The notes beneath the pieces were generated by a model. That model was not told where the DNA came from and did not search any database. It saw only the letters and a program-made list of their open reading frames with translations. From Candidatus Aenigmatarchaeota archaeon (lineage in GTDB: Archaea; Aenigmatarchaeota; Aenigmatarchaeia; CG10238-14), in the NCBI GenBank assembly GCA_044343545.1, contig JAWBZR010000002.1:19213-83212 (forward strand): a stretch of DNA of 64,000 nucleotides. The letters run 5' to 3'. Positions within the stretch are counted from its first letter, which is position 1, and every line of letters starts with the position of its first letter. The translations under genes and the position numbers were made by a program. Below, one piece after another: positions 26,430 through 51,973 of the stretch.

Positions 26430-26440
26430 ATCACCCTTTA

Positions 26441-26544
26441 CGCTCTGGCCGGGATTTGAACCCGGGTCACGGGAGTTCTGCTTATTATTGACAGTCCCGT
26501 ATGATTAGCCTCAAGGATGATTGGGCCAGCTACACTACCAGAGC
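26441..26544 (-). tRNA. tRNA-Asp(GUC) with two introns (17 nt at 21/22, 26505-26521; 13 nt at 37/38, 26476-26488)
   Basis: Removing both inserts gives a 74-nt canonical archaeal tRNA-Asp (GCTCTGG TA GTGT AGCTGGCCCA TCAT A CGGGA CTGTCAC TCCCG TGAC CCGGG TTCAAAT CCCGG CCAGAGC G); both junctions fold as BHB-like motifs. Confidence 0.9.
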
Positions 26545-26642: not shown

Positions 26643-26758
<116 letters not shown>

Positions 26759-27143: not shown

Positions 27144-27258
27144 TCCCCCCGGCCGGATTTGAACCAGCAACCCTTCGGTTTCTGACGAGCATACGCCGGT
27201 GACGAATGCTTTTAGCAAACGTCTACAGCCGAATGCTCTACCGTTGAGCTACGGGGGG
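27144..27258 (-). tRNA. tRNA-Tyr(GUA) with 43-nt canonical intron (27180-27222)
   Basis: C1:G72 acceptor CCCCCCG/CGGGGGG-A; anticodon arm TTCGG-CTGTAG|intron|A-CCGAA; 72 nt after splicing. Confidence 0.92.
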
Positions 27259-35267: not shown

Positions 35268-35304
35268 ATTTTTAAAATTTCACAAAAATCTTATATTTAT
35301 TAAT

Positions 35305-35395
35305 AGCCCCGTCGTCTAGATGGCTTTGCCAGGATAACGGTCAAGGATAGCGGGCTTTGGACCCGTTGACAGCGGTTCGAATCCGCTCGGGGCTA
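35305..35395 (+). tRNA. tRNA-Gln(UUG) with 18-nt non-canonical intron at 15/16 (35320-35337)
   Basis: A1:U72 acceptor AGCCCCG/CGGGGCT-A; anticodon arm GCGGG-CTTTGGA-CCCGT; removing ATGGCTTTGCCAGGATAA restores D-loop AGCGGTCAA (73 nt). Confidence 0.92.
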
Positions 35396-50717: not shown

Positions 50718-50800
50718 AATCTCATTTTATTAATTTTTTAGAACTTTATATTTTTTGCTAAAATTAAATATTAAAAGATTAGTTGCATTATAAAATTTTC

Positions 50801-51973
50801 ATGTCTAATTTTTTCGAAATCACATACACTTTTGGTAGGGCAAGGACGGGAGTGATACATACACCACACGGAAGTTTTGAAACTCCAGCATTCATACCAG
50901 TGGCAACGAGAGGCGTACCTCCAGGCTCATCTTTATCCGATCTTAGAAATATCGGATACAACTATATAATGTGTAATACATATCATCTAATGGAACGGGA
51001 GGATGAGATAAGACGTAGAGGCGGCTTGCATGCTTATTTGAATTGGGAGGGTGTAATATTTACAGATAGCGGAGGTTTTCAAGTTTTTAGTTTGGGTGCC
51101 GGCTCAGAGTTCGGTATAGGTAAAATAGGCAGCATCTTCACGGGTAGCGAAATTAAGAGGGGAAAAAATTATGTAAATATTTTAGATGACGGAGTTGAAT
51201 TTTTAGATCCAAAAACTGGTAAAAAAACAATATTGACACCAGAATATTCTATTTATCTTCAACAATTATATGGGTCTGATATTATGTTTGCTTTTGACGA
51301 GTGTACGTCACCTACTCATGACTATAAATATACTTTGGATGCTTTGGAGAGAACTCATAGATGGGCGAAAAGGTGTCTTTGCGCGAAAACTAAAAATGCT
51401 TTGTTCGGTATAGTTCAAGGTGGTGTATATAAAGATTTGAGAGAAAAGAGTGCCAACTATTTGAGTAGATTGCCTTTTGATGGTTATGCTATAGGTGGTT
51501 CTTTGGGAAAAAGCAAGAATGACATGTATAGGATATTAGATTGGGTTTTACCTTTGCTTCCACAAAACAAACCGAGACATTTGTTAGGTATAGGAAGGCT
51601 TGATGATATTTTTGAAGCGGTTGAGAGAGGCGTAGACACGTTCGATTGTGTGGAGCCAACAAGGTTAGCGAGGCATGGTAGCTTATTAGTGTCACCAAAG
51701 TCTGGAGGTAGTGTTAAAAATTGGTTTAGATGGAATATATCTAAATCTAAAGGCAATGATGCTAGGGTAGATGAAGATTGTACATGCCCACTATGTCAAA
51801 GTTATACTCGAAAATATGTGTATGAAATGTTTAAGGATAAAGATTCACAATACCTTCGATTAGCAGCCATTCACAATTTAACTTTTATGTACAATTTTAT
51901 GAGAGCGATCAGAGAATCTATAATGATTGGGAGATTTAGTGAATTGAAAGGGTATTGGCTTTGTTCAGTTTAA
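50801..51973 (+). CDS. tgt: tRNA-guanine transglycosylase, bacterial (queuine/preQ1, position 34) type
   Basis: TPAFIPVAT, NTYHL, TDSGGFQVFSL, FDEC, GIVQGG, PRHLLG, FDCV.PTR.ARHG, CTC..C...HN zinc site; no PUA extension. Confidence 0.9.
   Translation: MSNFFEITYTFGRARTGVIHTPHGSFETPAFIPVATRGVPPGSSLSDLRNIGYNYIMCNTYHLMEREDEIRRRGGLHAYLNWEGVIFTDSGGFQVFSLGAGSEFGIGKIGSIFTGSEIKRGKNYVNILDDGVEFLDPKTGKKTILTPEYSIYLQQLYGSDIMFAFDECTSPTHDYKYTLDALERTHRWAKRCLCAKTKNALFGIVQGGVYKDLREKSANYLSRLPFDGYAIGGSLGKSKNDMYRILDWVLPLLPQNKPRHLLGIGRLDDIFEAVERGVDTFDCVEPTRLARHGSLLVSPKSGGSVKNWFRWNISKSKGNDARVDEDCTCPLCQSYTRKYVYEMFKDKDSQYLRLAAIHNLTFMYNFMRAIRESIMIGRFSELKGYWLCSV

Follow-up and report, generated by a model that had tools for sequence, protein, structure and literature searches.

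An interrupted tRNA-Gln(UUG) gene

We analyzed a gene for tRNA-Gln(UUG) from an uncultured DPANN archaeon of hot springs, Candidatus Aenigmatarchaeota archaeon (GenBank assembly GCA_044343545.1), whose DNA was found in hot-spring metagenomes. The window, by which we mean the whole 64,000-nucleotide stretch that was analyzed, corresponds to positions 19213-83212 of contig C11 of this assembly (designated G000; 651 kb, 22 contigs, 33% G+C, rated 90% complete). The gene (window positions 35305..35395, + strand) was defined by its sequence and by the covariance model match described below; it is 91 nt long, extends from A1 to discriminator A73 and does not encode the CCA end. It is highly probable that this gene is functional and that an 18-nt intron of the archaeal protein-spliced type separates G15 from C16. 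This reading of the sequence is based on the observed anatomy of the gene, its conservation, the identity of the predicted product with uninterrupted genes, the presence of genes for both splicing enzymes and the need of the host for this tRNA.

The 5′ part of the gene consists of the acceptor strand AGCCCCG, TC (U8 C9), the D-stem strand GTCT and AG (A14 G15). This 5′ exon (tRNA positions 1-15; 35305..35319, +), identical in all five sequences available for the genus, is followed by an insert (35320..35337, +), seen here and in the genus mates, that can be divided into A, TGGC, TTT, GCCA, GGAT and AA. The 3′ exon (tRNA positions 16-73; 35338..35395, +) contains CGGTCAA, GGAT, A, the anticodon loop CTTTGGA, TGAC, the T-arm, the 3′ acceptor strand and the discriminator A, and only two of its columns (tRNA positions 16 and 20) vary among the five sequences. 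The true 3′ D-stem strand GGAT (tRNA positions 22-25; 35345..35348, +) was placed by the ARAGORN cloverleaf of the in silico spliced product, and the anticodon TTG (35357..35359, +) by this cloverleaf and the sequence itself.

Together with the exon letters on both sides, the insert forms a motif of the bulge-helix-bulge (BHB) type, that is, a 4-bp central helix and two 3-nt bulges on opposite strands. In the central helix (H), exon strand GTCT (tRNA positions 10-13; 35314..35317, +) faces intron strand GGAT (35332..35335, +) and forms pairs G-U, U-A, C-G and U-G; all four pairs can form in each of the five genus sequences, where the intron strand reads GGAT, GGGC or GGAC. The letters GGAT recur as the true 3′ D-stem strand, so the intron strand is a stand-in for it. 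The 5′ bulge, AG/A (35318..35320, +), and the 3′ bulge, AA/C (35336..35338, +), flank the H helix, and a TGGC-TTT-GCCA hairpin (h′; 35321..35331, +) with a perfect stem abuts the 5′ bulge. By our own arithmetic, two 4-bp helices at a fixed register are expected in random sequence with a probability of about (6/16)^8, or ~4e-4. The archaeal BHB is cut after the second bulge base, which places the predicted cuts after 35319 and after 35337. An earlier reading made from the sequence alone (the sequence-only reading) had described the 18-nt insert after G15, the GTCT/GGAT pairing, the copied D-stem strand, the two 3-nt bulges and the TGGC/GCCA hairpin, and each of these features is indeed present in the sequence.

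Deletion of 35320-35337 in silico leaves 73 nt that ARAGORN folds into a standard tRNA-Gln(ttg) cloverleaf; removal of the insert thus restores a canonical tRNA. We also derived a covariance model, free of the motif, from 18 uninterrupted tRNA-Gln genes. It matched 35305-35395 end to end (78.5 bits, E 1.2e-19, model positions 1-73) and assigned the additional letters to the D-loop, after A14-G15 and before the true GGAT, a placement that is not base-resolved. The register comes from this product and model, from uninterrupted genes and from the genus mates (see below). Thirty loci of relatives were inspected. Seven of them carry an insert directly after TCTAG, 14, from other families, are uninterrupted 73-nt tRNA-Gln(CUG) genes that have no insert but an identical D-arm, and the remaining nine have a different D-stem and lack such an insert. 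Three of the 14 uninterrupted genes read exactly TCTAG-CGGTCAAGGAT, which is the predicted junction, and the host's own intronless tRNA-Gln(CUG) gene has a 9-nt D-loop of the same AG-N-GGTCAA form. Since splicing as predicted would yield the very D-arm that relatives have without interruption, the proposed position of the BHB-type intron at 15/16, with junction TCTAG/CGGTC, is confirmed.

Precursor folding, register and conservation

An intron that sits two bases after tRNA positions 10-13 and is bounded by a BHB must end in a strand complementary to these positions. The mimicry of the D-stem is therefore a geometric consequence of the BHB position and not a special device. We computed the energies of two precursor conformers, one with the stand-in (BHB) pairing and one with the true D-stem. 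The values were -32.1 vs. -29.9 kcal/mol at 37 °C and -10.16 vs. -6.6 kcal/mol at 70 °C, i.e., the stand-in pairing is favored by a computed 2.2 kcal/mol at the lower temperature and by 3.6 kcal/mol at the higher one. The suggestion that the D-arm cannot fold before splicing agrees with these energies, though modestly.

The conformer with the true D-stem and a hairpin in the loop is the form expected if the insert were retained, yielding a mature tRNA with an enlarged 27-nt D-loop that contains a small hairpin. That such a structure can be computed at all (the -29.9 kcal/mol above) is a point in favor of retention, which we nevertheless consider very improbable. The last part of the insert is a strand in competition with the D-stem, and of the two folds the one with this strand has the more favorable computed energy; the BHB geometry is kept in all 22 genes found at the level of the order (see below), and 15/16 inserts vary from 12 to 36 nt with fixed exons. 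Uninterrupted relatives have a normal 9-nt loop. Retention would also leave G18 G19 far from A14 G15, and a loop of this size occurs in none of the 18 aligned uninterrupted tRNA-Gln genes.

As regards the exact position of the cuts, we deleted each BHB-compatible segment in turn and submitted the products to ARAGORN. Many registers were accepted. Since this brute-force procedure did not discriminate between them, the register rests on the uninterrupted relatives instead. One of the accepted products, recognized as tRNA-Gln, results from removal of a 17-nt intron, GCCAGGATAACGGTCAA, by means of a GGCT/GGTC helix, with D-loop AGAUGGCUUU left behind. The four pairs of this alternative helix exist, and, judged by eye, the helix can also form in the genes of two genus mates (G004 and G001). 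It lacks, however, the proper flanking 3-nt bulges and adjoining helices, and it is not available to most other 15/16 introns, such as those of 12 nt, in which TGG is missing. Moreover, its D-loop would differ among genus mates (CTTT, TTTA and CTCA) despite the near-invariant exons, and A21 would be lost, whereas cutting at 15/16 reproduces the uninterrupted D-loop exactly. We regard the 17-nt register as scarcely credible and retain 15/16.

The insert is kept in four of four genus mates, whose full 91-92-nt genes are 92-98% identical to the one studied here; among the other 56 relatives searched, no full-length match above 68% was found. In the five genus sequences, the exons (73 positions) contain two variable columns, and the flanks diverge freely. 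All changes observed within the intron preserve pairing. They comprise the three variants of the H strand and, in the hairpin, one compensatory change from C-G to U-A (two of the five sequences) and one change from G-C to G-U (one sequence). Standard pairs occupy 125 of 125 pair cells in the five sequences, a share that falls to 49.6% or less once the 3′ partners are shifted by one to three columns. The insert is carried unchanged by contigs of two sequencing runs of one study, one of which is possibly the source sample, and no DNA form without the insert (i.e., with joined exons) was seen in contigs of four DNA runs. Among eight sequencing datasets listed for this DNA, none was of RNA. One base of the window, at 35302 in the A/T run that immediately precedes the tRNA gene, is missing from the contigs of runs X1 and X2.

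A TATA-box-like sequence, TTTTTAAAA (35270..35278, +), precedes the mature 5′ end by about 30 nt. It retains its TTTAA core in all five genus sequences, and other flanking sequence is divergent. We infer that it is a promoter element.

The host has a clear use for the tRNA. In 376 open reading frames of at least 200 codons, Gln is encoded by CAA 3139 times and by CAG 553 times, i.e., 85% of Gln codons are CAA. No other gene with a UUG anticodon was found in the 90% complete assembly: a G+C-rich UUG anticodon stem-loop in a tRNA context occurs in this gene only, the other hit of the regular expression, on contig C16, being without tRNA context. Glu is encoded by GAA 9333 times and by GAG 2515 times, and tRNA-Glu(UUC), the decoder of the majority codon, likewise bears an intron. 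Judging from its sequence, the gene studied here encodes an essential tRNA whose intron is almost certainly spliced. A decaying pseudogene with a neutral insertion or an assembly artefact, to which a low Rfam score (29.4 bits) and the origin of the sequence from a 90% complete metagenome-assembled genome (MAG) might point, is hardly tenable given that this is the only UUG-anticodon gene, that its exons are strongly constrained in five species and its upstream TTTAA box is conserved, that contigs of two runs contain the same insert and that tRNA-Glu(UUC) is built the same way.

Splicing and modification enzymes

Removal of a BHB intron requires EndA and a ligase, and the host encodes both. A single gene of the assembly contains the EndA N-terminal and catalytic domains (PF02778 plus PF01974); its 177-aa product scores 130.8 bits with TIGR00324 (cut-off 59.6). 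The RtcB ligase is encoded as well (538.1 bits). EndA appears to be present as a single alpha-type subunit, presumably a homotetramer, though a divergent beta subunit is possible given that the assembly is 90% complete. Compared with the M. jannaschii alpha4 enzyme (1A79), the protein has a 6-residue basic insertion (KLKRGPKEA) just before the catalytic His. Comparable insertions are present in the alpha subunit of Nanoarchaeum equitans (3IEY_A), to which the region aligns gap-free, and in ARMAN-2 EndA (4FZ2), where a single residue is gapped.

With these enzymes, maturation would proceed as follows. In the precursor, exon positions 10-13 (GUCU) would pair with intron GGAU and not with the real 3′ D-stem strand, which would create the central 4-bp helix of the BHB, and the intron hairpin would serve as its inner helix. 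EndA would cut after G15 and after the last A of the intron, and RtcB would join the exons; the freed 10-13 strand could then form the true D-stem. A lineage with one small alpha-type EndA would thus depend on cutting a D-loop intron with a marginal outer helix, which bears on the published view that small loop insertions outweigh subunit type in determining EndA specificity.

D-loop introns have already been described (PMC5829648; PMC3241643), and the present case opens no new mechanism. The published systems are compared here as presented in the available portions of the respective texts. In Aeropyrum pernix, the D-loop BHB intron of pre-tRNA-Thr2(UGU) is cut in vitro by APE-EndA alone, with no guide RNA or modifications (Hirata et al. 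2011, PMC3241643). The likeness to our case is that a BHB-type D-loop intron disturbs the tRNA core until it is spliced; the differences are that A. pernix is a crenarchaeon with an (alpha-beta)2 EndA bearing a Crenarchaea-specific loop, whereas our gene stems from a DPANN archaeon in which EndA is of the single alpha type, encodes another tRNA and is known from sequence alone. The pre-tRNA-Glu(UUC) of Methanopyrus kandleri contains a relaxed HBh′ intron in the D-loop, at 20b/21 (Kaneta et al. 2018, PMC5829648), and shares with our gene the D-loop location, a Glu/Gln-type tRNA and an incomplete outer helix. It differs in position and in that an enzyme without the specificity loop cuts it poorly, while at 15/16 the 5′ D-stem strand is borrowed as one side of the central helix. 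The same source reports alpha4 EndAs with an L3 loop in several DPANN lineages, along with a marked rise in disrupted tRNA genes. In ARMAN-2, like the present host a DPANN archaeon, non-canonical tRNA introns are numerous and the specificity of EndA is broadened; the introns described are, however, located at 59/60 and 53/54 in the T-loop, and its enzyme is an epsilon2 EndA built as a three-unit fusion (Fujishima et al. 2011, PMC3239211), unlike the single 177-aa subunit and the 15/16 position described here. In Asgard tRNA genes, short D-arm insertions that are often BHB-compatible are missed by tRNAscan-SE and seen as oversized D-loops (bioRxiv 10.64898/2026.10.13.758758); that census includes no DPANN genomes, the term “DPANN” occurring zero times in its text, and our host belongs to DPANN. 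A literature search found no paper on Aenigmatarchaeota tRNA introns or on a tRNA-Gln D-loop intron in DPANN; position “15/16” is not reliably searchable and may already be in print.

Several points weigh against the proposed splicing. The sequence-only reading called the BHB clean, which is true of the H helix, the bulges and the h′ hairpin, but the outer helix h has just two possible pairs (C9-G and U8-G), and its addition worsens the computed energy (-29.7 vs. -32.1 kcal/mol at 37 °C). The motif is thus intermediate between the strict (hBHBh′) and the relaxed (HBh′) form, and the combination of H and h′ with a marginal h describes it best. Folding without constraints gives an optimum (-36.8 kcal/mol) that is not tRNA-like, corresponds to neither the BHB nor the cloverleaf-like conformer and was considered uninformative. 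Covariation is weak with five close relatives, 44 of 500 shuffles reaching the observed score. Since the GTDB-wide pattern described below imposed the GGRY-AA ending, its 17 hits lend no independent support to the register. As for the enzyme, an EndA that lacks a specificity loop is reported to leave a D-loop BHB intron nearly uncut (PMC3241643), which implies that position can matter as well as motif; the basic insertion of the host EndA may be the published L3 loop, as its alignment position suggests, this position being the basis of the assignment. Finally, cleavage in vivo and its register are inferred, not observed.

The sequence-only reading had also suggested that modification of G15 to archaeosine has to await splicing, a proposal that finds no support in the gene content. 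The assembly contains two TGT-family paralogues of ~397 and 396 aa (window 50783-51973, +, and G000:C6:17543-18736, +). They score 146.6 and 142.3 bits with the TgtA model TIGR00432 (cut-off 350) and pass the model of bacterial Tgt, the guanine-34 type, with 489.6 and 399.6 bits (cut-off 306.75). No ArcTGT gene is seen, and the enzyme is probably absent from this organism (the assembly being 90% complete). QueD was not found in the assembly, and the only QueC matches are to an N-terminal fragment (the first 60-73 of 210 profile positions). In the order, TgtA scores above the cut-off in 8 of 117 genomes, none of them in the genus (best genus mate, 121.3 bits), and 100 of the 117 have no TGT match at E 1e-5 or better. 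The eight TgtA-positive genomes all lack a 15/16 intron, and the 15 genomes that carry the intron are all without TgtA. We make no claim of mutual exclusion from these figures, since with 8 of 117 genomes the expected overlap is ~1 and the relatives are not independent.

Introns at 15/16 in other genes and genomes

The sequence-only reading took position 15/16 to be rare, a view that does not hold for this lineage: introns occur there in tRNA-Glu(UUC) of the same genome, in 15 of the 117 genomes that represent the order and in MAGs labelled Micrarchaeota and Woesearchaeota. The tRNA-Glu(UUC) gene of the host (G000:C15:1797-1883, -) has a 22-nt intron at 15/16 that starts with AG/A and ends with GGAC-AA/T. 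The hexanucleotide GCTTTG is common to the Gln and Glu introns of this genome; this has a chance probability of ~0.05 by our own arithmetic and was not used as evidence.

For the order, we searched the 117 genomes with a pattern that fixes only GTCTAG and a downstream GGYYAAGGAY. The search retrieved 27 matches in 18 genomes, of which 22, in 14 genomes, have the 15/16 architecture; the other five comprise two long inserts without the motif, two matches of another kind and one insert located elsewhere. All 22 introns begin with A and end with AA, although neither feature was imposed by the pattern. The H strand forms four of four pairs in 18 of the 22 genes and three of four (GGAA) in the remaining four. 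One further genome, with a gene that contains a second intron right after the D-loop, brings the total for the order to 15. All of these genomes belong to families f1 and f2, and none of the 19 genomes of family f5 is among them.

A stricter, GTDB-wide pattern retrieved 18 loci, 17 of which are tRNA-Gln genes; by their record titles, these belong to Aenigmatarchaeota (seven), Micrarchaeota (three), Woesearchaeota (three), uncultured archaeon (three) and Thermoproteota (one). The 15/16 introns range from 12 to 36 nt, the exons remaining fixed. An inner hairpin was predicted in 11 of 20 parsable introns, and the nine introns without it include the 12-nt minimal forms. Three tRNA-Gln loci (L045, L052 and L105) combine a 15/16 intron with inserts after the D-loop and at or near 37/38, i.e., have two or three introns per gene.

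At locus L096, from a MAG labelled Micrarchaeota, 10 nt of the 36-nt 15/16 intron (GGTCAAGGAT) exactly repeat the D-loop/3′ D-stem exon segment that lies downstream. The copy hints at an origin or growth of the intron by local duplication; a reading as two introns is also possible. We also considered that the 15/16 intron may have arisen by duplication of D-loop positions 16-27, which it resembles (YGG..YCA-GGAY-AR), in sequences that are too short for statistics.

Comparison of genes within single genomes points to intron exchange. In genus mate G004, the Gln(UUG) and Glu(UUC) genes (L033 and L112) are identical over 27 nt, including the entire 18-nt intron. In genus mate G003, Glu(UUC) and Glu(CUC) (L114 and L115) are likewise identical over 26 nt, with a 20-nt intron inside this stretch. 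Between G003 and G004, the exons of Glu(UUC) do not differ, but its introns do. The simplest reading, suggested by these alignments, is that at least one intron was replaced by that of a paralogue. Identical introns in the Gln and Glu genes of sister species thus offer a concrete, testable case of tRNA intron exchange. Near-identical introns in different tRNA genes of one genome are also known from Thermoproteales, where introns transpose among tRNA genes (Fujishima et al. 2010, as summarised in the available portion of PMC4090602). Unlike there, the genes that share introns here agree in insertion position and almost completely in the D-arm sequence around it, and this near-identity of the flanks makes gene conversion just as likely as transposition. 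On recurrence at 15/16 in Gln/Glu tRNAs across DPANN-labelled MAGs, or on exchange between such genes, no paper was found, the same limit on searching for the position applying.

One can go further and propose, as a rather doubtful scenario, that the 15/16 intron is a long-lived exchangeable cassette of DPANN Gln/Glu tRNA genes. It would move via the near-identical D-arm flanks, would be kept in the decoders of majority codons because the stand-in strand keeps the D-arm from folding before EndA has acted (a selected checkpoint of maturation, or a safeguard for the gene, rather than a neutral trait) and may stem from a duplication of the D-loop and 3′ D-stem.

Introns of this type have consequences for annotation. 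As the sequence-only reading had expected, standard scans fail at the locus. ARAGORN found three other tRNAs in the window and missed tRNA-Gln(UUG); with the intron option, it called the locus tRNA-Val(aac) with a 4-nt intron. The Rfam tRNA model barely reached its gathering cut-off of 29 bits, and its match wrongly starts at 35322, inside the insert. The tRNA-Glu(UUC) gene on contig C15 was called tRNA-Arg(ccg) with an 11-nt intron by ARAGORN. The decoders of CAA and GAA of a 0.65-Mb genome are thus invisible to or mis-called by ARAGORN and barely seen by Rfam, and the tRNA sets of DPANN MAGs will look incomplete unless D-loop introns are searched for. In the host assembly, expected tRNAs that neither ARAGORN nor Rfam found include Asp, Cys, Glu(CUC), Gly(GCC) and Ala(UGC).

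Further tRNA loci of the assembly deserve mention. Oversized or low-scoring loci with an ambiguous intron layout are located at C13:1127-1233, C13:2319-2435, C4:10664-10777, C18:34170-34295 and C19:224-319. A tRNA-Asp(GUC) locus in the window (26431-26534, -) gives weak model matches, and several registers are possible there. The window also contains a gene for tRNA-Tyr(GUA), whose canonical intron measures 43 nt according to ARAGORN and 46 nt in the Rfam alignment, near a 5S rRNA gene (27144-27258 and 26643-26757, both -).

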